From assembly GCA_041688155.1 (NCBI GenBank), contig JBDNIW010000014.1, positions 9,517 through 73,516 of the forward strand: DNA of 64,000 nucleotides. Direction: 5' to 3'. The notes beneath the pieces were generated by a model. That model searched no databases, had not been told where the DNA came from, and saw nothing but the letters and a program-made list of their open reading frames with translations. The DNA comes from Minisyncoccota bacterium (GTDB taxonomy: Bacteria > Patescibacteriota > Minisyncoccia > Phycocordibacterales > UBA918). The first letter of the stretch is position 1. The number at the start of each line of letters is the position of its first letter. The translations under genes and the position numbers were made by a program. Positions 3,274 to 58,196 of this stretch are shown in pieces.

Positions 3274-4563
3274 ATGGCCATCAGTCAAGCATTGCTCGGG
3301 ATGAACGCCCGCAACTACCTCTATATCAGACAGCTCAACCGGCGCAACCATAAACTGGTGGCTGATGATAAACTACTCACCAAACAGATTTTGCTCAAAA
3401 ACGGCGTCGCCACTGACCCGATTTTAGCGCATTTCAAAACCCTGCAAGACGTGCGGACATTTGACTGGACCAGCTTGCCGACTGACTTTGTACTCAAACC
3501 ATCCCACGGGTACGGTGGGCGCGGGATAACCATCATTCGGGATTGGAACGGTGTGTCAGGGACTATCAGCAATGGCCAAACGGTGACTGAGATAGACGTC
3601 GAACGGATGGTGTTTGGTGCGCTTGATGGGGAACATTCACTCAACAATTTACCAGACACGGTGTTTATCGAAAACCGAATCATTCCGCACGCTTTTTTCA
3701 AAAAATACGTTCAGTCTGGCGTACCCGACATCCGGGTGATTGTCTGCAACAAAGTGCCAGTGATGGCGATGATGCGCTTACCAACTGTGTACTCCGACGG
3801 AAAGGCTAATTTGCACCTAGGCGCACTTGGGATCGGGATTGATATGCGCACGGGGATTACGACGTTTGGTACGTTGCACAACAAACTAGTGGACTACATT
3901 CCCAAAACTAAAATCAAAGTCCGGGGGCTCAAAATCCCCGACTGGGAGACTATCCTTGAGACGTCAGTGGCGGCACAGGTGAGTTCCAAGTTAGGGTTTG
4001 CGGGGATTGACATCGTGCTTGATAACGCGCGCGGCCCGTTGGTGCTAGAGATCAACGCCCGCCCAGGACTGAGTATTCAGATTGCTAATCAAGCCTCGCT
4101 GCGGACGAGACTCGAACGTATCGCTGACCTCAAAGTGCCGTCGGTCGAGCGTGGCGTTGAACTGGCCAAACAGCTGTTCGCTGAGCAGCAGCTCGAGGAC
4201 GTCAAGTCAGAAGACCGGGTGTTGGGGGTGATTGAAAAAATCGTCATCTATGGCAGCAAAAAGAAAAAAACCGTCCGGGCCAAAGTCGATACCGGCGCAT
4301 ATCGTACGTCAATTGATAGTGATTTGGTTGAAGAGTTGGGGCTCGATGCGCGCAACAAGTTCGTTCGCGTACGCTCAGGCAGCGGTCGCCAAAAGCGGCG
4401 TACAGTCGCGGTACGATTCAAAATGAAAGGCAAGGAGATTGATTCGATAGCCACGTACACCCCCCGCGACCACCTGCGCTTCCCAGTGATTATCGGACGG
4501 CGTGACATGAAAGGGTTCGTGGTTGACCCCAATGATATCCCCGCCGGCGTCACGGTGAGATAA
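3274..4563 (+). CDS. ATP-grasp (RimK / alpha-L-glutamate-ligase-like) domain fused to C-terminal retropepsin-like aspartyl protease domain
   Basis: ATP-grasp-like N-terminal ~300 aa; C-terminal 'RAKVDTGAYRTSID' (D-T-G-A aspartic protease signature) resembling RimK-associated 'putative ATP-dependent zinc protease' retropepsin fold. Confidence 0.7.
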   Translation: MAISQALLGMNARNYLYIRQLNRRNHKLVADDKLLTKQILLKNGVATDPILAHFKTLQDVRTFDWTSLPTDFVLKPSHGYGGRGITIIRDWNGVSGTISNGQTVTEIDVERMVFGALDGEHSLNNLPDTVFIENRIIPHAFFKKYVQSGVPDIRVIVCNKVPVMAMMRLPTVYSDGKANLHLGALGIGIDMRTGITTFGTLHNKLVDYIPKTKIKVRGLKIPDWETILETSVAAQVSSKLGFAGIDIVLDNARGPLVLEINARPGLSIQIANQASLRTRLERIADLKVPSVERGVELAKQLFAEQQLEDVKSEDRVLGVIEKIVIYGSKKKKTVRAKVDTGAYRTSIDSDLVEELGLDARNKFVRVRSGSGRQKRRTVAVRFKMKGKEIDSIATYTPRDHLRFPVIIGRRDMKGFVVDPNDIPAGVTVR

Positions 4564-4583
4564 ACCCGTGTTACTATTGTGGT

Positions 4584-5330
4584 ATGTTTCGGACGCGCGA
4601 TTTTGTACTGCTGTTTTCTGCCATCATGTTTTTGGTTTTGGCTATTGGGACGACGCTGCTGACGCAGGGTCGGTCCGCTAGTACGATTGCGGTCCCGTTT
4701 GAGCCAGGGGTAGAGTCTGATGTCAGGTACGTTGCAACTATTGCGCCGTCAGATCAGCTCAATCGGGCAGAGCGGGTAGCGGATATGCGCGCCAAAATCT
4801 CGCAAGAGGCGTTTGTCTATGAACCAGCACCTGAGGTCATCGTAGCTACCAACCCGGCCACTAGTACTGAAGAATCTACAGACGTGGTTACAACTGGCGC
4901 GGTGGAGTGTGCAACCTACCAACCATATCTCGGGTTCTGGGACGCCCGCGGGTTGACCCTCACCCTGGCTGCAGGCACCAGGATGCTGACTCGAGCTACC
5001 GCTGCTACCTCTTCCAGTCTAGAGGTGATACTACAATTGCCAATTGGGTCACAACCAAGTGGTAACCCAACTTGTCTCCAGTCTGATGTTATCGGGATTG
5101 CCAACGATGGATCGTTGATCCGTAACGACGAAGTCGCTTTGTATAGTATTTTTGGAGCCGAAACAGTTATCGGCTACGCATTGGATGGATTTCCAATCTA
5201 TGGTGCCGGTGCCGGTGTAGCGGATGCTTGTAGCGGTCGGTTAGTAGCTGGGCAGTTTCGGTATGAAATACAGCGAGGTGGTGTGACCATTATTAACTGT
5301 TTTGCGGCTACGCCGGTAACTCTCCCGTAG
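4584..5330 (+). CDS. hypothetical membrane-anchored protein
   Basis: N-terminal TM helix then Thr/Ala/Gly-rich domain; no recognised motif. Confidence 0.5.
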   Translation: MFRTRDFVLLFSAIMFLVLAIGTTLLTQGRSASTIAVPFEPGVESDVRYVATIAPSDQLNRAERVADMRAKISQEAFVYEPAPEVIVATNPATSTEESTDVVTTGAVECATYQPYLGFWDARGLTLTLAAGTRMLTRATAATSSSLEVILQLPIGSQPSGNPTCLQSDVIGIANDGSLIRNDEVALYSIFGAETVIGYALDGFPIYGAGAGVADACSGRLVAGQFRYEIQRGGVTIINCFAATPVTLP

Positions 5331-5331
5331 T

Positions 5332-6060
5332 ATGGCGACGCTAGTGTTTGATATCGAAACCGTGGGTCAAGATTGGGATACTATCCCCGAATCAACCCAG
5401 TACGCGCTGACCAAATGGATTGGTCAGCAACCAGTGAGCGATGAAGAGAAAGATCGGCAAAGTGAAGCGGTCAAAGAAAAACTTGGTTTGTCACCCTTTA
5501 CCGCCGAAGTCATCTCGCTGGCGATGTACGACCTGGAACGCCAGCAAGGCGCCGTGTATTTTGTGGCTGATGATTCGGTGAGAGATTACGGTGTCGGTGA
5601 CTGGAAATACAAAGTGCGCACCGAGCAACAGTTACTCGAAGATTTCTGGGAGACCGCCCGCAGCTACGACGTGTTTGTCACGTTCAACGGCCGTTCGTTT
5701 GATATACCATTCCTTCTGCACCGTTCATTGATACAAGGAGTGCGTCCGACCAAAGAGTTGACTGGACAACGGTACCTCAATCGGCAAAGTCCGCCGTACC
5801 ACATCGATTTGCTTGATGAGCTATCATTTTACGGTGCGATGCAACGCCGCCCGTCGTTACAGCTGTTGTGCGATGCCTACAACATCCCCTACGAAAAAGC
5901 GGGTATGGGAGGTGAGGACATCACCGAGTATTACATGAATAAAAAATATCGTGATATCGCCGAGAAAAACGCCGCTGATGTAGTCGCGACGACAGCCTTG
6001 TTTCAAAAATGGAAAACCAACCTAGCTCCTGCAAGTTTTATCAATGCAGTGGAATTTTAG
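5332..6060 (+). CDS. RNase H-like 3'-5' exonuclease (PolB-exonuclease-like / DEDDy family)
   Basis: 'LVFDIETVG' (Exo I DxE), 'FVTFNGRSFDIPFL' (Exo II), 'YHIDLLDE' (Exo III YxxxD). Confidence 0.6.
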   Translation: MATLVFDIETVGQDWDTIPESTQYALTKWIGQQPVSDEEKDRQSEAVKEKLGLSPFTAEVISLAMYDLERQQGAVYFVADDSVRDYGVGDWKYKVRTEQQLLEDFWETARSYDVFVTFNGRSFDIPFLLHRSLIQGVRPTKELTGQRYLNRQSPPYHIDLLDELSFYGAMQRRPSLQLLCDAYNIPYEKAGMGGEDITEYYMNKKYRDIAEKNAADVVATTALFQKWKTNLAPASFINAVEF

Positions 6061-6123
6061 CGAAGGCGCTAATTTGTCCCACACTTGAGGTAGGACAAAT
6101 TAGTAGTTTGCTATAATTTCAAT

Positions 6124-6756
6124 ATGAAAAATATTCTCGCCTTACTCGCTGACTGGGCTAATGGCTTGTTTGCTGTCCTGATTGCGTCGTGGTGGTTTGG
6201 GGTTGAGCCACTCTGGTGGCACTTTGCTATTGGGCTAGTGTTATCACATGCACCAGATCTAGATGCAATCCCAGAGCTACTCAGGCGCGGCCGCGTAGCT
6301 GCTAGTGCTGAGCACCCACATGATCACCGCGAGGCACTACACTATCCAATCATCTTGATTACGCTGGCTGTGCTAGTCGCGTACTTTATTCCGTACTGGG
6401 GAACAATTTTCTTGGTAGCGGTCGCACTACATCTCATAAATGATTTATATGGAACTGGCTGGGGAATTAAATTATTTTGGCCACTGTCAAAAAAGAACTA
6501 CAAACTGCTTGGTCGACGGGTTAATCGTCTAGAGTACATACTTAAATCTGATGGAGATTGGGAGCAACAACCTGAATCAGAGCGAAAGCTTCGTTGGTTG
6601 GTATCTTGGTCGCCAGAAGAATTACCTGGCTACATGACGCGGTGGGGAATTGACGACTGGATTCCCAAATACTACGGCACTTTGAACCGTATTTCGGCAG
6701 TTGAATACTCATTATTTCTACTAGCGATTATTTTGACTGGGCTGGCTCTGGTATAG
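6124..6756 (+). CDS. membrane-bound metal-dependent hydrolase (YdjM/DUF457-like)
   Basis: several TM helices with conserved His/Asp ('LSHAPDLD', 'EHPHDHRE'). Confidence 0.5.
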   Translation: MKNILALLADWANGLFAVLIASWWFGVEPLWWHFAIGLVLSHAPDLDAIPELLRRGRVAASAEHPHDHREALHYPIILITLAVLVAYFIPYWGTIFLVAVALHLINDLYGTGWGIKLFWPLSKKNYKLLGRRVNRLEYILKSDGDWEQQPESERKLRWLVSWSPEELPGYMTRWGIDDWIPKYYGTLNRISAVEYSLFLLAIILTGLALV

Positions 6757-6765
6757 TAGGGTCAT

Positions 6766-7992
6766 ATGCAACGAGATTTTCCGGAGGGATTTTACTGGGG
6801 GGCGGCAACCGCTTCGTATCAGGTTGAGGGTGGGATTGATGACTGCGACTGGGCTGAAGGCGCCCGCGAGGGTAGGGTGCCGGTATGTGGGCGAGCGTGT
6901 GACCACTATAACCGGTACGAGGCGGATTTTGATTTAGCGGTAGAACTTGGGCACACCGCCCACCGGTTCTCGATTGAGTGGGCACGGATTGAACCGGAGG
7001 AAGGCGTGTTTGATCGTGAAGAAATTGAGCACTATCGTCAGGTGTTACAAGCGCTGAAAAGTCGTAACATCAAGCCGTTTGTGACGCTCTGGCACTTCAC
7101 CCAGCCACTGTGGTTCTCGCAATCAGGTGGATTTGAGCGAGTGGATTCACCGGAGGTGTTTGCCCGCTACGCCCAGTTTGTGGTAGAGCAGCTTGGTGAT
7201 TTATGTGACCATTTCTCGACTATGAACGAGCCAAATGTGTTTGGCAGTAACGGCTGGCTGCGTGGAAATTGGCCACCGTTTAAACGGTTTGCGTTGACTG
7301 ATTTAGTATCAATAACTAACTCAGGCAATAATTTTGAAGATAGGGCGCAAAAGGGATTTAAAAACCTGTTTCTATATCGTCGAGTGATGAAACACCTGGC
7401 CCAGTCACACAATGCAGCGTACCGAGCCATTAAGAAAGTTTCTCCTCAGACTGAGGTGAGTGTGGTTAAACACGTAATTGTGTTTGCTACCAACAAGAAT
7501 CCGGTTAACGCTATCAAAGCCGCTGTAGCCAATTATGCCTGGACACGAGTGTTTATGAATCGAACGCACAAATATTGCGACTCGATTGGTCTCAACTACT
7601 ATTTTTATACGCAGTTTGGTGACAAGCGTGACTGGAGAAAGACTGACATGGATTGGAACTTTGCCCCAGATCACATCTATGAGGCGCTGATGATGTTAGC
7701 CCGGTATAACAAGCCGTTGTTTGTATCAGAAGCTGGTATTGCAGACCACGACGACTCTGATCGAGCAGAATACATTACCAAACAAGTTGCAGGGGTTCGC
7801 CGTGCAATTGCTGATGGGGCTGACGTTCGTGGGCACCTCTATTGGTCACTGATGGACAATTACGAGTGGGCGCTTGGGTTTGAAAAGCAGTTTGGTCTAA
7901 TTCACATCAATTACGACACCCTTGAACGGGAAATCCGGCCCAGTGCGTGGGTGTATAAAGACCTGATTGAGCGGTACAGCAAGGTAGAATAA
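6766..7992 (+). CDS. glycoside hydrolase family 1 (beta-glucosidase-like)
   Basis: N-terminal 'FPEGFYWGAATASYQVEGG', acid/base 'TMNEPNVF', nucleophile region 'FVSEAGIAD'. Confidence 0.85.
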   Translation: MQRDFPEGFYWGAATASYQVEGGIDDCDWAEGAREGRVPVCGRACDHYNRYEADFDLAVELGHTAHRFSIEWARIEPEEGVFDREEIEHYRQVLQALKSRNIKPFVTLWHFTQPLWFSQSGGFERVDSPEVFARYAQFVVEQLGDLCDHFSTMNEPNVFGSNGWLRGNWPPFKRFALTDLVSITNSGNNFEDRAQKGFKNLFLYRRVMKHLAQSHNAAYRAIKKVSPQTEVSVVKHVIVFATNKNPVNAIKAAVANYAWTRVFMNRTHKYCDSIGLNYYFYTQFGDKRDWRKTDMDWNFAPDHIYEALMMLARYNKPLFVSEAGIADHDDSDRAEYITKQVAGVRRAIADGADVRGHLYWSLMDNYEWALGFEKQFGLIHINYDTLEREIRPSAWVYKDLIERYSKVE

Positions 7993-16413: not shown

Positions 16414-16455
16414 ATGTGGTTAGTATACGCCGTAGGAGTGGGAATTTTTTGAGCT

Positions 16456-16493
16456 ATAAACAAAGCAGCGCCGATAGGCGCTGCTTTGTTTAT
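16456..16493 (-). terminator. rho-independent terminator-like hairpin downstream of rnj
   Basis: perfect 15-bp inverted repeat aaacaaagcagcgcc/ggcgctgctttgttt with 4-nt loop, T-rich flank. Confidence 0.6.
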
Positions 16494-16527
16494 ATGGGTT
16501 CAATCCGTAGGCTAGGATTTACTCACT

Positions 16528-21339: not shown

Positions 21340-23333
<1,994 letters not shown>

Positions 23334-23339
23334 AAATAA

Positions 23340-23372
23340 AAAGACCCTGACAAAGTCAGGGTCTTTTTATTT
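23340..23372 (+). terminator. rho-independent terminator after groEL
   Basis: agaccctgac-aaa-gtcagggtct stem-loop followed by TTTTTATTT. Confidence 0.85.
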
Positions 23373-23528
23373 CTGCTCCCTGCACTGCACTCGGAAAAGA
23401 AAATGCCTAACGGCGTTTTCTTTTCACTCGTTACGTTTGGTAGTAACAATAATAAAAGCGCTAGCTCTGGCTAGCGCTTTATGTTTACAGTGATCTATTA
23501 TATAATTAATGCAATTAAAAAATAATGT

Positions 23529-25464: not shown

Positions 25465-25551
25465 GGAGAGATGGCAGAGTGGTCGATCGCGCATCCTTGG
25501 AAAGGATGTATACGTTTACGCGTATCGGGGGTTCGAATCCCCCTCTCTCCG
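25465..25551 (+). tRNA. tRNA-Ser (anticodon GGA)
   Basis: GGAGAGA/TCTCTCC acceptor stem; anticodon stem-loop CATCC-TTGGAAA-GGATG with anticodon GGA; long variable arm ATACG...CGTAT; T-arm GGGGG-TTCGAAT-CCCCC; CCA not encoded. Confidence 0.9.
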
Positions 25552-25703
25552 CATGAACGTAGTGAATAAGGAGAGAGAGTAAAGCGCGGGGCGCTTTACG
25601 TGGGGATTCGAAAAGCTTTTGAGTCAGATTGGGAGCTTTGCTCCCCAATCTGTCCAAAAGGTATACCGCTCGTGTAACGAGAGAAATTCCCCCTCTCTCC
25701 GCA
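25552..25703. repeat. about 150-bp direct repeat copy 1, starting immediately 3' of tRNA-Ser and ending in a copy of the tRNA 3' end (attccccctctctccgca)
   Basis: about 95% identical to 26777-26926; last 19 nt match the tRNA 3' end. Confidence 0.85.
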
Positions 25704-26776: not shown

Positions 26777-26926
26777 AGCGAACGCAGTAAGCAAGGAGAG
26801 AGAGTAAAGCGCGCGGCGCTTTACGTGGGGATTCGAAAAGCTTTTGAGTCAGATTGGGAGCTTTGCTCCCCAATCTGTCCAAAAGGTATACCGCTCGTGT
26901 AACGAGAGAAATTCCCCCTCTCCGCA
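26777..26926. repeat. about 150-bp direct repeat copy 2 (right boundary of islet), ends ...attccccctctccgca
   Basis: near-identical to 25552-25703 with 2-nt deletion and a few substitutions. Confidence 0.85.
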
Positions 26927-28251: not shown

Positions 28252-28292
28252 GAAATCAACCGTGGGCGCTATAGGCGCCCACGGTTGATTTC
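28252..28292 (+). terminator. rho-independent terminator-like hairpin
   Basis: perfect 18-bp inverted repeat gaaatcaaccgtgggcgc/gcgcccacggttgatttc with tata loop. Confidence 0.7.
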
Positions 28293-34002: not shown

Positions 34003-34476
34003 TTAGCTGGCCTGCAGGATGGCGGTCTCTAGCTCATTGAGTTGGTTCTCGTGCACAGTCGTGCGGCGCTCACCGACCCAGTAGGGGATTTTGGTAAATG
34101 ATGCGGTTAGGTCGCTGGTGAGTGGTCCGCTGAGGGTGGCAATAATCAGCAAAGTAAACGAAGCTTGCTCGTCAGCGTCGATGGTGTACCGCTCGCCAAC
34201 AACTGGCTGGTTGCTCAGGAGAACAGCGTTGGTGACCATCACGTCCGCTCCAGTCAAAGCGTATCCCAGCACATCCACCCGGTCAAAATACCCAACTGTG
34301 CTACTAGCCATAATCGGCAGCTGGTAGTCATCACCGGCGGCGGTGAACCCAAAATTAAGGGTAAATAAAACCGTCGTGTCGTTGAGTTGTATGGCAGTTG
34401 CAGCGTCAACCTGGTTCGGCGTAAGCCAAACCGCAGTGATAACTAACAAGGCCACTAGAATCGTTGGTGTTTTCAT
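34003..34476 (-). CDS. hypothetical secreted protein
   Basis: signal peptide 'MKTPTILVALLVITAVW'; divergent from sigma gene. Confidence 0.5.
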   Translation of the reverse strand: MKTPTILVALLVITAVWLTPNQVDAATAIQLNDTTVLFTLNFGFTAAGDDYQLPIMASSTVGYFDRVDVLGYALTGADVMVTNAVLLSNQPVVGERYTIDADEQASFTLLIIATLSGPLTSDLTASFTKIPYWVGERRTTVHENQLNELETAILQAS

Positions 34477-34496
34477 GTCACTATTGTACAAGTAAC

Positions 34497-35072
34497 ATGA
34501 CAGACGAACAAGTGACAGACGAAGTGGTCGTAAAACAAGCCCTGCAAGACAAGGAGCAGTTTGGCGTACTCATGGATCGCTACGAAGCCAAACTCCGTCG
34601 CTACATCGCGCGGCTTGGCGTCCGCAACCCTGACGACCAACTCGACGTGCTGCAGGACATCTTTATCAAGGTGTACCGCAACCTCAATGGGTTTGATCCC
34701 AAACTTAAGTTCTCCTCGTGGATCTACCGCATCGCCCACAACGAAGCCATTAGTGCGTACCGTAAGAAAAACGTCCGCCCCGAGGGGCACTTGGTCGCTG
34801 ATAGTGAAGAAATATTATCGTTTGTGTCGGGATCACTCGAGACAGCCGACGCTGCGTTTGATAAAACCATCAATGCCGACGAGGTTAATGCTGCACTACT
34901 CAAGTTAGATCCTAAATACCGCCAGGTGTTATTGCTGCAGTTTTTTGAACACAAAGAGTACGACGAGATATCAGATATTCTCCAAATCCCCATCGGCTCG
35001 GTCGGCACCCTGATTCATCGCGGCAAAAAACAGTTGGCCACTGTCATAAACGCTGACCATGTACGTATATAG
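34497..35072 (+). CDS. ECF-subfamily RNA polymerase sigma-70 factor
   Basis: region 2 'DIFIKVYRNL...FSSWIYRIAHNEAISAYRKK'; region 4 'YRQVLLLQFFEHKEYDEISDILQIPIGSVGTLIHRGKKQL'. Confidence 0.85.
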   Translation: MTDEQVTDEVVVKQALQDKEQFGVLMDRYEAKLRRYIARLGVRNPDDQLDVLQDIFIKVYRNLNGFDPKLKFSSWIYRIAHNEAISAYRKKNVRPEGHLVADSEEILSFVSGSLETADAAFDKTINADEVNAALLKLDPKYRQVLLLQFFEHKEYDEISDILQIPIGSVGTLIHRGKKQLATVINADHVRI

Positions 35073-35074
35073 TT

Positions 35075-36022
35075 ATGAAACTAGACATGCAACCAACTCC
35101 GCCACAACCACCAGCATCAACCTCAATCAGAGATCGAGTATTTTGTGCGATTGCTGACCAAAAAGTCGAACCCCGACCTGGTTACGTATTTTGGTGTCAA
35201 AACAGCGCTATGTGGCTGATATGGCTACTGACCGTACTATTGGGAGCATTGGCGACCGCGGTGTTGCTGTTCACCTCGACCTACCGCTACTACGATATAT
35301 ATGAAGCAATGCACGATAATTTTGTGACGTTTTTCTTGCAAGCACTGCCGCTTTTGTGGATTGTAGCGTTTGTGGTACTGATGCTGGTAGCGATGCGTGG
35401 CCTGCGGGCTACCCGGCGGGGCTACCGTCTGTCACCAGTACTGGTTGGTGGGTCGAGTGTGGGTGTGAGTGTGTTGCTTGGGCTACTTGCGAGCACGCTG
35501 GGGTTTGGGTTCGTGGTTGACCGGGCGCTCGGAGAACATGCTCCGATGTACCGCTCACTAGCGGAGCAAGAGCAGCAAATGTGGCAACAACCTGACCAAG
35601 GGCGGCTGGTTGGACAAGCAGCCAGGGTCGAGACCCGTGAACAAATGACCGTCCAGTTTGTTGACAGTGCCGGTGTCGCTTGGAATCTAGACATTCAAGA
35701 GCTACGCCCCCAAGATCACCTGCTCCTGGAGTCAGCCCAGCGGGTGCGAGTATTAGGAATGCGGCTAGAGGGGGAAGCGCCCCGCTTCCACGCCTGTGGC
35801 GTATTCCCCTGGATGGCAGACCAAAACCGTCCGCGGAAAGTGCTCAGTGCCGGTCGCCAGGAATCCGTGGATAAAATGTACGCTCATTCCTACACCCCAG
35901 CCGATCGCCTCGCCGAGTTTGAACAACTAGCTTTTGCTGATGCCCGAGCCGATACTGTCCCCAGTATGAAAATCTGCGCGTCCATTGCAGCAGTGAAGCG
36001 CATAACCGAGCAGATGCAGTAG
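35075..36022 (+). CDS. membrane protein, putative cognate anti-sigma factor
   Basis: starts 3 nt after sigma gene; cytoplasmic N-terminal segment then several TM helices and a soluble C-terminal domain. Confidence 0.5.
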   Translation: MKLDMQPTPPQPPASTSIRDRVFCAIADQKVEPRPGYVFWCQNSAMWLIWLLTVLLGALATAVLLFTSTYRYYDIYEAMHDNFVTFFLQALPLLWIVAFVVLMLVAMRGLRATRRGYRLSPVLVGGSSVGVSVLLGLLASTLGFGFVVDRALGEHAPMYRSLAEQEQQMWQQPDQGRLVGQAARVETREQMTVQFVDSAGVAWNLDIQELRPQDHLLLESAQRVRVLGMRLEGEAPRFHACGVFPWMADQNRPRKVLSAGRQESVDKMYAHSYTPADRLAEFEQLAFADARADTVPSMKICASIAAVKRITEQMQ

Positions 36023-36045
36023 CACAAACCCCATGAACCAAGGAA

Positions 36046-36067
36046 CTTAAGTCATCGATGACTTAAG
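36046..36067. repeat. 22-bp perfect palindrome CTTAAGTCATCGATGACTTAAG (REP-like, solo copy)
   Basis: identical to copies at 55406-55427 and 56103-56124 that flank the RAYT gene. Confidence 0.9.
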
Positions 36068-36070
36068 TAA

Positions 36071-36867
36071 ATGGTTTGCCTCGGTGTGGTTGGTGCCTTG
36101 GCGGTCGCCATCTCAGTGTTTTTGGTGACTCATCGTCAATATGAGATATATGAAGCCACCCACGAAAATTGGTTTACCTTTATGGTCGAGGTGCTGCCGT
36201 TCATCTGGGTGATTGTCTTTGGCTTAATGGCATTTTTGGCCGTGTACAACATAAAACACACGAAAAGAGGCTATCGCTACTCGATTACAACCGTTTTGGC
36301 CAGTAGTATCGTCTTGAGCTTTGCTGGAGGCTCAGCGCTGCAGTTTTTTGGCCTAGGATACTCAATTGATGAGATTATAGGGGACTAGATGCCGATGTAT
36401 ATGTCACAGGAGAAAATTGAGTATCAATTATGGCAGCAACCTGCCGAAGGAAGACTGATTGATAGGCAGGTAGTAATGACCGTCGCTACGTCCAGTGTGG
36501 TGGTGTTTCAAGATACTACGGGCATAGGTGGAGAATTGAGATACAAGAGCTGTTACCCGCCGATATACAGCTACTAGCCCCGGGCGAGAATGTACGACTA
36601 CTGGGTCAGAACATGAATGAGCAGGCCAAGGTATTTCACGCTTGTGGGGTATTTCCCTGGATGATGCATCGTGAAGTGACTATGCAGCAGATGAGCGAGC
36701 AGCGCGAACCATTCCTCGGCCGGGTGAGAGAAATGGCGCAGTGGACCGAGGGTTCCATTGCTGATTTAGAGAAAGACTTGTTTGCCGACGCTACGGGGAT
36801 TGACGAAAAAACCATGCCCGTATGTGCCAATATCGCCGCCATGCGGCGGGTAAACCAACGCCAGTAG
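36071..36867 (+). pseudogene. disrupted tandem paralog of the putative anti-sigma gene, split into three ORFs
   Basis: ORFs 36071-36388, 36389-36577 and 36613-36867 align in order to N-terminal, middle and C-terminal parts of the 35075 product (e.g. 'HACGVFPWM', 'YEIYEATHENWFTF' vs 'YDIYEAMHDNFVTF'). Confidence 0.7.
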
Positions 36868-48904: not shown

Positions 48905-48917
48905 AATAGCTCAAAAT

Positions 48918-48959
48918 AAGTATAACGCGCACTCACATAGGTGAGTGCGCGTTATACTT
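48918..48959 (+). terminator. perfect 19-bp stem hairpin (terminator-like) after B1 gene
   Basis: aagtataacgcgcactcac-atag-gtgagtgcgcgttatactt. Confidence 0.55.
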
Positions 48960-49538
48960 ATACCTGACTGCAAACTCTTTTGAGCTGCGGGTAATATAAT
49001 GTTACCGGTACAAAAAAGTAAAAGAAAATACTACGGTTCTCCGTGATGCGAGTGTTGCATGTTTGTCGCTGGAGTTGATGAGGAGTAGTCCGGTAAACTT
49101 TTTGGTTACCCATTGGAATTATGTCTCCCTGAGCGTGCCGTCAAAAAGAGCGCCTTGTTGTTTTTTTCCACCCATAGACCTCCTTACCAACTCGCATCTT
49201 GCTCTAAAAGAATCAGTGAAAATAACGAAATAGACCCTAATCCCGCAGATTGCCTGGCAATCTGCGGGATTATTTGTGTATAAACAAACTCTTAGTTATA
49301 CGGGCAGCGTATACTGCATATGTATCCGCATTGGAGGTAAACCATTTAGTGATTACCGAGCGTACGTAATTTCTACGTACGCGTGCAGTTCAGCCGACTG
49401 TGTCAAGGTGGGTACGTTTACAGTAATTATTTTATAGCTGGGTGTGGAGACTCAGCTATAGTGAGCTGTAGTAATACAGCTCACCTTGTGACGCACTACG
49501 TCAACAGGTGCTGTGAGCTAAATACAACGTAGAGTACT

Positions 49539-55215: not shown

Positions 55216-55405
55216 GTATATAGAGATTGATGCATAAGCCATATCAACTACAGTCTCAGCACTGCAGTGCCAGACATATTATGTCTCGGCTTCAATTGTT
55301 GATGGACGCAGTAACGAAACATGATCATATTGCTGGAACGTTTTGGCAAACAACCCGATAAGGTAAACCACCGGCCCCACCAGCGGTTTTTATATAACAG
55401 AAATA

Positions 55406-55427
55406 CTTAAGTCATCGATGACTTAAG
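55406..55427. repeat. 22-bp perfect palindrome CTTAAGTCATCGATGACTTAAG (REP-like, 3' flank of RAYT gene)
   Basis: identical to 36046-36067 and 56103-56124. Confidence 0.9.
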
Positions 55428-56082
55428 TTTCTAATTGGTTGCTGCTGTGGGCTAACTTTGATGATGTAATTATCTGTTTTATATTATTGTTCTGGTTTAC
55501 GGTGCTGCCTAACAGCCCCTTTATTTCCCGGGTTGTAATGATTGAGGGAAAATTCTTGACTTCTTGATAATCAAACAAGCTACTCCAGCGATACTCACGA
55601 AGCACTTGTAGTGCCGTGTTTGGATCTAAGACTGAACCGGTGCGCCATTGAGGGTGTGAATAGTCTAGCGGGTTCAAATGTATGTAATAAGGGATATACA
55701 GAAAATGTACATCTCTATCAATCGGGATTTTTTTGTATTTGCCTTGCCAGACGTAGCCGCTACGTTCGTATTTTTCGTTATAGAATTTAGCATATCCCAT
55801 GTTTAATTTTTTCATGAATAATGAAAGATTCTTCGAATCATTGTCTACTGGGGAGAGTAGCAAATGGTAGTGATTCTTCATCAAACACCAAGCATGTATA
55901 TGCACTAATGGTTCACGCACCCGACCCATATCAGCCCACAAATTTTGTTGGGTTTTACCATTAGGTGGCGACTGTACATCGTTTAATACGTATAGACTGC
56001 GAACGAACCGCATTCGGTCGCTATCGTCGTGTACAATGTCCCGCTTTTCAATTCCGCGATTAAGGACATGATAGAAATCCAT
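55423..56082 (-). mobile_element. REP-associated tyrosine transposase (RAYT; IS200/IS605-like Y1 HuH transposase)
   Basis: 'MDFYHVLNRG...', HuH motif 'MKNHYHLLLSP', catalytic-Tyr region 'RSGYVWQGKYKKIPI'. Flanked on both sides by the identical 22-bp palindrome. Confidence 0.75.
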
Positions 56083-56102
56083 ATACTTAGAATAACACAC
56101 CA

Positions 56103-56124
56103 CTTAAGTCATCGATGACTTAAG
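56103..56124. repeat. 22-bp perfect palindrome CTTAAGTCATCGATGACTTAAG (REP-like, 5' flank of RAYT gene; overlaps uvrB upstream region)
   Basis: identical to other two copies. Confidence 0.9.
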
Positions 56125-56132
56125 TGGTGTGT

Positions 56133-58196
56133 ATGGTGTATACTTGCTTTGTGAAGTTTGAAATCTCGACTGAAAAAAAGCCAGCTGGTGATCAGCCGCA
56201 GGCTATCGCTTCTCTGGTTAAAGGAATCAAGTCTGGTGTCTCGCATCAGACGTTGTTTGGTGTAACTGGTTCTGGTAAAACGTTTACTGGTGCTAACGTG
56301 ATTCAGCAGATTCAGAAACCGACACTGGTAATCGCGCACAACAAGACCCTCGCAGCGCAGCTGGCCCAGGAATACAAGGACTTCTTCCCTGATAACGAAG
56401 TGCATTATTTTGTGTCCTACTACGATTACTATCAACCAGAGGCGTATATGCCAACCTCAGATACGTACATTGAGAAAGAATCGCAGATTAACGAAGAAAT
56501 CGATCGGCTTCGACACGCGAGTACTCAGGCATTGCTGACCCGTGAGGATGTAATCATTGTCGCGTCGGTGTCCTGCATTTATGGTTTAGGGTCGCCAACT
56601 CAGTACTTAAAAAAACACCTCAAATTTGAACGTGGGTTTGAGACGACGCGGACGGAGATGCTTAGAACGCTAGTTGATATGTACTTTGAGCGTACCAACG
56701 CCGACCTCACCCCGGCGCACTTTCGGGCTGTCGGCAATACGGTGGAGATCATGCCTACCAACGAACGGGCAATTTACCGACTTGGCTTCGCTGGTAACAT
56801 AATCAGCAGCATTACCAAAATTGATGAAGTCACGCGAGAAATCATTAGTGAACCGGACGTATTTTTCCTCTTTCCAGCTAAACACTTTGTCACCCCCGAA
56901 GACGAACGTAAAGTTGCCATTGAAGACATCAAGCTGGAACTCGATGAGCGGCTGAAATATTATAAAAAACAACCAGACAAACTACTCGAAGCTGAGCGAC
57001 TCAAACGTCGTACCGACCAAGACCTCGCTATGATGCGGGAGATTGGGTTTTGTAGCGGGATTGAGAACTATTCACGTCACTTTGATCGTCGCAAGCCAGG
57101 TGAAGCACCATACACACTCCTGTCATACTTTCCGCATAAACCAGACGGCACACCTGACTTCCTCACCATCATTGATGAGTCTCATGTGACTATCCCGCAG
57201 TTAAACGGCATGTACGCTGGTGACCGGTCGCGCAAGGACATGTTGGTTGAGTACGGTTTTCGCCTACCATCAGCCGTCGACAACCGTCCGCTCAAATACA
57301 CCGAGTTTGAACAGCGGATTGGGCAGGTTATCTATACGACAGCGACCCCCGGAAAGTTTGAACGAGCAAAGGCTGAAGAGTTGGGTGTGCCGATGGTGCA
57401 GCAAATCATCCGTCCGACGGGGCTGATTGACCCCGAGATTGATGTGCGAGGTATCGACCAGACCGATACTTATCCTGGTCAGGTCAAAGACTTTATCGCT
57501 GAGGCTGAGCGAGTGATTGCTCGTGGCGCCCGAGTGCTGACAACCACCCTCACCAAACGGATGGCCGAAGACCTCGCTGACTTCCTCGAAGAGAAGGGAA
57601 TTAAGACTAAATACATCCACAGTGACGTTGACACGATCGAACGAATCGAAATCCTCACTGACTTCAGGCGTGGAAAGTTTGATTGTTTGGTTGGGGTGAA
57701 CTTACTTCGAGAAGGGTTGGATTTACCTGAAGTTGAACTCGTTGCCATTCTTGACGCTGATAAGGCTGGATTTCTTCGCAGTGAGACGGCGCTCATCCAG
57801 ACCATTGGTCGGGCAGCGCGTAACGTCAATGGCCGGGTGGTACTCTATGCAGACGTGATGACCGACGCTCTGACCTACGCGATCAGTGAGACCAACCGCC
57901 GGCGCGAACTCCAGATGGCCTACAACACCAAACACGGCATCACACCTAAAACCATCATCAAGGAAATCAAATCTATCGCCGATCAAATGCGCACCAAGCA
58001 CGACGAAACAGTAGAAACCCTGCTCAAGGTTGACATGGAACTGTTCAAGAAAAACCCTAAAAAAGTCATGAAAGAAAAAAAGCGTCAAATGGAAGACGCT
58101 GTCTCACAGTTAGATTTTGAAACCGCGGCCATTATCCGTGACGAGATTGTGTACCTCGAAGAATCAGTCACCAAAGCTCAGAAAAAAAAGTTGTGA
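56133..58196 (+). CDS. uvrB: excinuclease ABC subunit B
   Basis: 'KPAGDQPQAI', Walker A 'GVTGSGKTF', helicase motifs, C-terminal UVR domain 'AAIIRDEIVYL'. ATG at 56133 chosen because the ORF-track GTG at 56124 lies inside the REP palindrome. Confidence 0.95.
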   Translation: MVYTCFVKFEISTEKKPAGDQPQAIASLVKGIKSGVSHQTLFGVTGSGKTFTGANVIQQIQKPTLVIAHNKTLAAQLAQEYKDFFPDNEVHYFVSYYDYYQPEAYMPTSDTYIEKESQINEEIDRLRHASTQALLTREDVIIVASVSCIYGLGSPTQYLKKHLKFERGFETTRTEMLRTLVDMYFERTNADLTPAHFRAVGNTVEIMPTNERAIYRLGFAGNIISSITKIDEVTREIISEPDVFFLFPAKHFVTPEDERKVAIEDIKLELDERLKYYKKQPDKLLEAERLKRRTDQDLAMMREIGFCSGIENYSRHFDRRKPGEAPYTLLSYFPHKPDGTPDFLTIIDESHVTIPQLNGMYAGDRSRKDMLVEYGFRLPSAVDNRPLKYTEFEQRIGQVIYTTATPGKFERAKAEELGVPMVQQIIRPTGLIDPEIDVRGIDQTDTYPGQVKDFIAEAERVIARGARVLTTTLTKRMAEDLADFLEEKGIKTKYIHSDVDTIERIEILTDFRRGKFDCLVGVNLLREGLDLPEVELVAILDADKAGFLRSETALIQTIGRAARNVNGRVVLYADVMTDALTYAISETNRRRELQMAYNTKHGITPKTIIKEIKSIADQMRTKHDETVETLLKVDMELFKKNPKKVMKEKKRQMEDAVSQLDFETAAIIRDEIVYLEESVTKAQKKKL

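Follow-up and report, generated by a model that had tools for sequence, protein, structure and literature searches.

A RAYT-type HUH nuclease gene with its own palindromes in a Patescibacteria genome as a probable minimal REPtron

Tyrosine transposases associated with repetitive extragenic palindromes (RAYTs and REPs, respectively) are the best-studied case of a domesticated transposase that persists with its repeats in one lineage, and they have so far come mostly from Proteobacteria, Cyanobacteria and Bacteroidetes. Here we describe what reads as an intact member of this group in a 64,000-nucleotide stretch (the window) of contig JBDNIW010000014.1, from a Minisyncoccota bacterium of the Patescibacteria, or Candidate Phyla Radiation (CPR). 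On its minus strand the window carries a class-2 Y1 HUH gene of the RAYT type (TnpA_Y1; 55423..56082), which encodes 219 aa from an ATG at 56080-56082 to a TAA at 55423-55425 and lies between two copies of a perfect palindrome; a further copy stands alone elsewhere in the window. We interpret this arrangement as a minimal 'REPtron': a resident, single-copy, vertically inherited gene for a RAYT-type HUH nuclease, together with its own hairpin-forming palindromes. We assign this reading a probability of roughly 0.68.

The start codon was set at the ATG at 56082 because homologues begin MD(F/I/L)YHV, and the open reading frame (ORF) named in a preliminary description of the stretch proved real. 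The Y1 transposase profile of Pfam (PF01797, Y1_Tnp), which that description proposed as a check, matches above threshold, with 27.6 bits against a gathering score of 23 (E 3.6e-06). The HUH metal-binding motif NHYH (N70-H73; 55864..55875, minus strand) aligns with the HMH of E. coli RayT; the W motif (W112-Q113; 55744..55749, minus strand) is the equivalent of RayT W94-Q95, whose role has been described (PMC6006769); and the catalytic tyrosine motif YIHLNP (Y133-P138; 55669..55686, minus strand), within YIPYYIHLNP, bears the signature Y---NP. In the signature table of Quentin et al. 2018 (PMC6006769), Y---NP denotes class 2, the RAYT side, and Y---Q the IS200 transposases. A WSS motif (W166, S167, S168) is also present. 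Among 98 homologues, H71, H73, W112, Q113, G114, Y133, N137, W166, S167 and S168 are invariant, among others, and P138 is nearly so (at least 90%).

A profile alignment to E. coli RayT, with the sequence taken from MG1655 (hhalign, E 0.004), pairs HYH with HMH, W112-Q113 with W94-Q95, and Y133 with Y115, where RayT has its catalytic tyrosine motif. The RAYT hallmarks of the preliminary description are therefore right as to the HUH motif, with its two invariant histidines, and misplaced as to the catalytic tyrosine: the 'GYVWQGKY' segment is the W motif, and the tyrosine lies in YIPYYIHLNP. An AlphaFold2 model built from the 98-sequence alignment scored highly (predicted local distance difference test (pLDDT) 90.6, predicted template-modelling score (pTM) 0.88). 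Its best Foldseek match in the PDB is 4er8_A, the E. coli RAYT with a REP hairpin (E 4e-4), followed by IS608, ISDra2 and IS200 transposases; hits 1-12 are all TnpA_REP, IS608, ISDra2 or IS200 transposases. Taken on its sequence, the product is an intact class-2 Y1 HUH protein of the RAYT type.

An exact search of the 64-kb window finds the 22-mer CTTAAGTCATCGATGACTTAAG at 36046, 55406 and 56103, with no further copy in the window at up to 3 mismatches. Every copy is preceded by A and followed by T, so the repeat proper is the 24-bp perfect palindrome ACTTAAGTCATCGATGACTTAAGT, at 36045-36068, 55405-55428 and 56102-56125. The identical palindromes that the preliminary description saw on either side of the ORF, and its third copy, are thus borne out, with their length refined to 24 bp, and to 38 bp at the 5' copy. 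This 5' cognate palindrome (56095..56132) is the 38-bp perfect palindrome ACACACCACTTAAGTCATCGATGACTTAAGTGGTGTGT around the core 24-mer at 56102-56125; it ends 12 nt upstream of the ATG, within the 68-bp divergent intergenic region that the gene shares with uvrB, and its outer arms, ACACACC/GGTGTGT, are specific to that copy. The 3' cognate palindrome (55405..55428; 24 bp, perfect) encodes the last residues of the protein and holds its stop codon, the TAA at 55423-55425. The solo copy (36045..36068; 24 bp) is intergenic. The palindrome is perfectly symmetric and therefore without orientation, and no strand is given for any copy. The gene and its palindromes form a unit of about 0.73 kb at 55405-56132, which corrects the bounds of 55406-56124 given earlier.

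Folded as single-stranded DNA (ssDNA), the 5' palindrome reaches a dG of -18.5 kcal/mol (z -8.3), the 3' palindrome -9.1 kcal/mol (z -5.1) and the solo copy -10.5 kcal/mol, the z-scores of the three ranging from -8.3 to -5.1. Rfam and tRNA scans gave no match at the palindromes. In 100 dinucleotide-preserving shuffles of the window the 22-mer had 0 matches; three copies are beyond chance, with none expected.

A word-indexed search (E <= 1e-3) returned more than 3000 homologues of the protein, and representatives at 50% identity form 80 clusters at E <= 1e-30, 3518 at E <= 1e-10 and 15339 at E <= 1e-3. Relatives are encoded by at least 573 stretches in GTDB species representatives, from which the 75 complete loci examined were drawn. 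The best 80 stretches come nearly all from Patescibacteria metagenome-assembled genomes (MAGs), of Kaiserbacteria, Paceibacteria, Wolfebacteria, Adlerbacteria and others, and a few contigs from other bins may be mis-binned. A cognate pair of flanking palindromes, defined by inner 8-nt arms that differ by at most 1, is present in 55 of the 75 complete loci, with a sequence specific to each genome.

This recurrence bears on the most sceptical account of the locus, namely that the three copies are a coincidence, or are generic terminator hairpins or clusters of restriction sites unrelated to the gene. Many other long hairpins do occur in the window, and AflII- and ClaI-type sites lie within the palindrome. 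However, the 24-mer had no chance matches and is the sole repeated palindrome in the window, where some 25 other long palindromes, many of them terminator-like, are each unique, and the same association of gene and palindrome returns across the related loci in ever different sequence. We consider this account refuted by the shuffles and by the recurrence in related loci, and of negligible probability. A restriction-modification reading was tried separately: CTTAAG occurs 14 times and ATCGAT 17 times, with 16.5 expected for both, neither avoidance nor enrichment, and there is therefore no restriction-modification signature.

Across the family the palindromes take set positions: one copy precedes the start codon by about 35-55 nt, and another lies at the stop codon or overlaps it. 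The 55 flanking pairs comprise 30 inverted, 17 direct and 7 other arrangements, and that of the window is the only fully symmetric one. Inside the coding sequence of 35 of these 55 loci lies a third copy, at about +125 to +185 nt (about +400 in L088 and L091), which is translated in frame in a hypervariable surface loop between 'FND' and 'LVxIHxWCLM', around codons 45-55 and N-terminal to the HUH motif. In L036 (10001-10657), for example, ATGTGGGACTTCGTAAGTCCCACAT encodes MWDFVSPT. By the orientation of its hairpin loop, the internal copy agrees with the 5' copy in 16 loci and with the reverse complement of that copy in another 16. Internal copies occur among the distant homologues L032-L098 (such as L036, L035, L065, L077, L059 and L053); neither the window gene nor its nearest relatives L019-L031 hold an internal palindrome, even a degenerate one, and the best full-length match has 11 mismatches in 24.

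The stems themselves appear to be maintained. Pairing at stem positions 1-11 reaches 93-100% across 125 palindromes, as against 28-61% in a control in which arms were re-paired between palindromes, and 3-4 types of Watson-Crick pair occur per position; taken on the sequences, this amounts to a hairpin or symmetry constraint. A conserved G occupies position -6 from the dyad in 90-93% of the 125. Many copies carry additional outer arms that are specific to the copy and perfectly complementary, such as those of the window (56095-56132), of L053 at -836 (AGAGATAT/ATATCTCT) and of L086 at +3677, relative to the gene start. Such arms suggest outward growth of the palindromes by template switching, or selection for longer stems; from established mutational mechanisms we attribute them to quasi-palindrome template switching.

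Together these features raise a further and more tentative proposal, to which we give slightly less than even odds: the genes would represent an undescribed, Patescibacteria-wide subclass of RAYT type, in which the hairpin is a built-in part of the gene at fixed positions (just before the start, in many members in an in-frame surface loop, and over the stop) and its copies evolve in concert through long vertical descent, rather than primarily a dispersed REP. If so, the pair of enzyme and hairpin would have a host-level or self-maintaining role and repeat proliferation would not be its main activity; candidate roles are autoregulated processing of ssDNA, or conversion templated by the hairpin, from which solo sites and strain-specific indels would occasionally arise.

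We examined how the gene is inherited by comparing populations and more distant genomes. An identical protein is found on at least 22 metagenome contigs (22 were read and sequences retrieved for 10). In every case its gene has uvrB on one side and a 69-aa ORF, then tgt, on the other, and both palindromes are intact. The gene occurs once in the window and nowhere else in related contigs, and it has no tnpB partner. Compared with a 94%-identical relative (L013), in which the gene occupies the same uvrB-gene-tgt locus, its ratio of nonsynonymous to synonymous substitution rates (dN/dS) is 0.12; the gene is under purifying selection. Its counterpart in that relative (L013:809-1465) starts with GTG rather than ATG, and 9 of 219 residues differ, none in the catalytic motifs. 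At a dS of 0.14, all 62 of 62 palindrome bases are unchanged between the two, and adjacent intergenic bases vary.

The same order of uvrB, gene, tgt and FKBP is retained in a Kaiserbacteria MAG (L021), where identity to the window proteins is 82% for UvrB, 70% for Tgt, 51% for FKBP and 59% for the Y1 protein. At the orthologous 5' site of this MAG the outer arm ACACC is kept and the core reads TAGGACATC-G, against ACTTAAGTCATC in the window; in each genome the 3' copy has changed in the same way as the 5' copy. The gene also lies beside tgt in a Wolfebacteria relative of 42% identity (L060). Other syntenic sets (L024/L025, L026/L031 and L019/L028/L033-L037/L043) likewise have palindromes that differ between genomes and match within a genome. 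The copies within a genome thus change together while the gene keeps its chromosomal position.

These observations can be set against the view that the unit at 55405-56132 is an autonomous insertion sequence (IS) of the IS200/IS605 type, with the palindromes as subterminal end hairpins and the solo copy as a remnant. The likeness is genuine as far as it goes: both have a Y1 transposase gene between two hairpins in a unit of about 0.7 kb, the HUH/Y1 fold also matches the TnpA proteins of IS608 and ISDra2, and the chemistry, hairpin-guided cleavage and ligation of ssDNA, is presumably shared. Gene neighbourhoods differ among most distant relatives, and 3 MAGs hold two members of the family. Yet in those MAGs the paralogues are not near-identical copies, and each has its own, different palindrome. 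Class-1 elements such as IS608, ISDra2 and IS200 come as multiple near-identical mobile copies, often with tnpB, and encode Y---Q transposases of about 150 aa; their left- and right-end hairpins point the same way and, unlike the pair in the window, are no identical perfect palindromes. With its Y---NP motif and 219 aa, the window gene has none of the distribution traits of an IS. It is found in one copy at one locus in every contig of the population, with no excision or insertion polymorphism in the present evidence, synteny is kept down to 42-59% protein identity while both hairpins diverged in situ, and the in-frame internal copy of its relatives would be needless for an IS end. Carriage by phages or mobile elements was also considered and rejected: among 2.9 million viral contigs (IMG/VR) no relative of the protein was found, and the 16-mer core has 26 single occurrences there, by a rough estimate about the chance level.

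On the strength of motif class, single copy and conserved synteny we regard the IS reading as improbable. The gene is a resident, single-copy and vertically inherited one, not a hopping IS200, and the label 'IS200-like' used in the preliminary description is misleading.

The solo copy offers a view of what the palindrome may do away from its gene. It lies 22 nt after the stop of a gene for a 315-aa membrane protein (35075-36022), which is preceded by an ECF-type sigma-70 gene (34464-35072; Sigma70_r2, r4_2), and 2 nt before a truncated, fragmented paralogue of that membrane protein (36071-36388 and 36613-36867) without its first ~50 codons, so that the palindrome stands exactly at the truncation point. 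In two related contigs, L012 (92.5-96% blastn identity to the window over three main aligned segments) and L015 (83%), homology to the window stops exactly at this palindrome, and from partial tblastx matches L012 appears to lack about 0.6-0.7 kb beside the site. The homology break, the truncated paralogue and the gap in L012 lead us to conclude that the solo copy marks an indel boundary. Together with the mostly intergenic position of solo copies, we count the homology break and the truncated gene as footprints of activity in favour of the REPtron reading.

A scan of Joint Genome Institute (JGI) metagenome contigs found the window palindrome at 8 loci. Two repeat the gene locus, 2 (L012 and L015) are orthologous to the site at 36046, and 4 carry sites that are new relative to the window, on related contigs that are not placed in its genome: L011 (twice), L014, which is the same as L016, and L018. 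The recurrence of the 22-mer beyond the locus, on which the preliminary description had hung its REP family, was therefore found in related metagenome contigs. Those sites outside the window whose surroundings were examined are intergenic. The L016 copy lies between divergent genes; the copy in the L018 region at 168-957 lies about 235 nt upstream of a pair of a BrnT-like toxin and a CopG-like antitoxin, with short CCTAGG-rich repeats just upstream of the palindrome; and the two L011 copies (3698-6769) bracket about 3 kb of small hypothetical ORFs, with an IS30-like transposase gene about 1 kb away. Judged by eye, the two L011 copies are embedded in longer, similar flanks, in which a terminator-like hairpin precedes the palindrome and a TTGTGCGTCTTTG... 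tail follows it. The second copy also carries a partial half-site, tttgACTTAAGttgtg, and L016 shows the same module with other neighbours. Exact matches to the 24-mer in GTDB representative genomes, among which this organism is not included, number 0.

Solo copies in the related loci amount to 27 per 1.16 Mb (about 1 per 40-60 kb), mostly outside long ORFs, and the window has 1 per 64 kb; such a density predicts tens per genome, not hundreds. The solo copy of the window is a single palindrome and so no REPIN, which consists of two inverted REPs with a short spacer that replicate as a unit; doublets are only occasional in relatives, for example in L053 at -2328 and -2254.

A different account keeps the association of gene and palindrome and dispenses with DNA breakage. 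In this account the palindromes are mainly cis-regulatory: a double-stranded DNA (dsDNA) operator through which a dimeric protein would autoregulate the divergent promoters of uvrB and its own gene, and a 3' hairpin or terminator in the mRNA, with solo copies as extra operators. A perfect dyad is the expected look of an operator for a dimeric dsDNA-binding protein, and position is fixed throughout the family, with the 5' copy ending about 10-15 nt upstream of the start and the 3' copy at the stop; both points count against the REPtron reading. The 3' palindrome scored as terminator-like, and the low copy number would also suit operators. On the uvrB side, the plus strand carries a promoter-like pair directed toward that gene (56115-56144; -35 ATGACT, 18-nt spacer, -10 TATACT, by match to the consensus only), with the -35 in the right arm of the 5' palindrome and the -10 just past it. 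Since this pair overlaps the palindrome, the 5' copy may also affect the divergent uvrB.

How close that gene comes to the palindrome depends on the start chosen. The longest uvrB ORF starts at a GTG at 56124, inside the 5' palindrome, and the JGI call at an ATG at 56133 abuts it, in keeping with the preliminary description, in which the right-hand copy abuts and overlaps the uvrB start; the syntenic homologue in L021 supports instead a GTG at 56151, 18 nt downstream of the palindrome, with which neither holds.

Against a purely regulatory role stand the residues of the active site: H71, H73, Y133 and N137 do not vary among the 98 homologues and P138 hardly does, at a dN/dS of 0.12 for the window gene, which would be unexpected if catalysis were dispensable. 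It also leaves unexplained the in-frame copies in the coding sequence and the copies inside other genes. In addition, homology between strains stops exactly at the solo copy, and the nearest relative of known structure binds its hairpin in single-stranded form. We judge this account unlikely, though it is the alternative to which we give the most weight. A regulatory contribution is compatible with the REPtron reading, in which the hairpins may also control the expression of the Y1 gene itself, as suggested by the fixed spacing of the 5' copy to the start and by the overlap of the 3' copy with the stop codon.

Under the REPtron reading, E. coli TnpA_REP and IS608 TnpA serve as models for the mechanism: the protein, probably as a dimer, would recognise the palindrome extruded as a hairpin on ssDNA, for example on the lagging-strand template. 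Y133 would then cleave near the foot of the hairpin, with the metal held by H71 and H73, and the ends would be rejoined. Activity at low frequency could seed solo copies along with adjacent deletions and rearrangements, and cleavage and rejoining, together with gene conversion or template switching, could keep the copies identical.

Several further points weigh against this reading. Binding and ssDNA cleavage are ascribed to the protein by analogy with homologues of only about 12-20% identity. A PDB sequence search with the family profile did not reach 4ER8 and returned spurious weak matches alone (BRCC36), and the relation to that structure is accordingly drawn from the hhalign alignment and the fold search. 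The TnpA_REP profile that the preliminary description suggested, NF047646 (REP_Tyr_transpos equivalog), is the sole NCBIfam match, at 40.7 bits against a cut-off of 80. The mixed orientation of the flanking pairs differs from that around classical RAYTs, where REPs are mostly inverted. Canonical REPs are imperfect hairpins with a 5' GT[AG]G tetranucleotide at the foot, dispersed in many copies through extragenic space, and such traits are missing here: no GTAG or GTGG foot is present at any copy of the window palindrome, the copies in related contigs included, or anywhere in the family set of 125, where the feet are A/T-rich; the palindromes are near-perfect, with loops of 0-3 nt; and copy number is very low, as counted in the 64-kb window and related contigs rather than over a whole genome. 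Finally, deletions beside long palindromes can arise without a dedicated enzyme.

The system is therefore not a canonical REP/RAYT, given the lack of a GTAG foot, the low copy number and the NCBIfam score below cut-off. What stands of the REP/RAYT reading in the preliminary description is the Y1_Tnp match, the cognate flanking palindromes, the further sites in related contigs and the fold match to 4ER8; the foot and the equivalog score do not support it, and neither does the sparse dispersal as far as counted in the window and related loci.

The system resembles and departs from the described subclasses in different ways. With E. coli RayT (YafM, TnpA_REP; subclass 2.2, Bertels group 2; 4ER8) it shares a Y1 HUH gene that is present once, is inherited vertically and lies between its cognate hairpin repeats, as well as alignable HUH, WQ and Y---NP motifs, the best structural match, and a repeat family of its own for each paralogue. 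It differs in its identity of about 12% and its score below the equivalog cut-off, in its length of 219 aa with a helical C-terminal tail (RayT has 165 aa), in perfect palindromes with short loops and without the GT[AG]G foot, in having a few copies per 100 kb where E. coli has hundreds per genome, in the stop codon embedded in the 3' copy, and in its host, which belongs to the Patescibacteria and not to the Proteobacteria.

By motifs, read directly rather than with the authors' hidden Markov models, the closest signature is that of TnpA_Y1 subclass 2.1 (Bertels group 1, largely 'TIRYT'), with NH[YF]H, W[EQ]/FQ, Y[IV]HLNP and an SS tail; FQ replaces WQ in more distant CPR members. Length (the median of subclass 2.1 is 238 aa) and low intragenomic copy number are also similar. 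Subclass 2.1 is reported to lack REP-like hairpins nearby and to have a helix-turn-helix (HTH) domain at the C terminus (Bac_DnaA_C, HTH_23 or HTH_28) and GGGG[AT][CG]A[CG] as terminal inverted repeats (PMC6006769), whereas the window gene has strong cognate hairpins, no such repeats at its ends, and a product in which Pfam finds no HTH family at E up to 1. CPR genomes were outside the dataset of that study (Quentin et al. 2018, PMC6006769).

Subclass 2.4 (Bertels group 4), of Cyanobacteria and Bacteroidetes, has REPs in frame inside tnpA_REP, which recalls the in-frame cognate palindrome in a surface loop of relatives of the window gene. Here, however, the internal copy lies on the N-terminal side of the HUH motif, and it is absent from the window gene and from L019-L031, its nearest relatives. 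The motifs of subclass 2.4 are NH[IFV]H and YIxNNP, and its REPs are long, 'double-foot' and of the GTAG type.

RAYTs, REPtrons, the co-evolution of RAYT and REP, and REPs within genes are already known. In the literature searched, we found no relevant paper on a RAYT, REPtron or TnpA_REP in CPR, Patescibacteria, Parcubacteria or Saccharibacteria, and the following appear undescribed there: the Patescibacteria-wide occurrence, the near-perfect palindromes with 0-3-nt loops and no GTAG, the fixed positions at the 5' end, inside the gene and at the stop codon, and the very low dispersal. The family combines conserved synteny, concerted change of two to three hairpin copies, a stop codon within a hairpin, in-frame internal copies and little dispersal, and so offers a compact natural system for studying what a RAYT contributes to its host cell where repeats proliferate very little. 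Its dozens of natural protein-hairpin pairs, with the conserved G at -6, are material for studying the co-evolution of protein-hairpin specificity.

The palindromes also mark strain-level indel boundaries, which is relevant to metagenome assembly and to genome variation in the CPR. Two Logan contigs (L008:1-22 and L010:1-22) start exactly at the first base of the 5' palindrome; because a palindrome of 38 bp could cause an assembler artefact, these ends were left out of the evidence for multiple copies. Long perfect palindromes probably break de Bruijn-graph assemblies here, and contig ends bounded by palindromes may be common in CPR assemblies.

The window is rich in hairpins other than the 24-mer, with 57 palindrome calls against 0-5 in shuffles. 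Unique, very long perfect hairpins with arms of 16-21 bp lie at 16455-16494, 23332-23374, 28252-28292, 48916-48961 and 49238-49272, and some of the long unique hairpins have A/T-rich feet and resemble bidirectional intrinsic terminators. Two near-identical short hairpins, GTAAAGCGCG(G/C)GGCGCTTTAC, are found 1.2 kb apart at 25579-25599 and 26804-26824; they are unrelated to the 24-mer and lie near tRNA-Ser (25465-25552), the only tRNA gene of the window.

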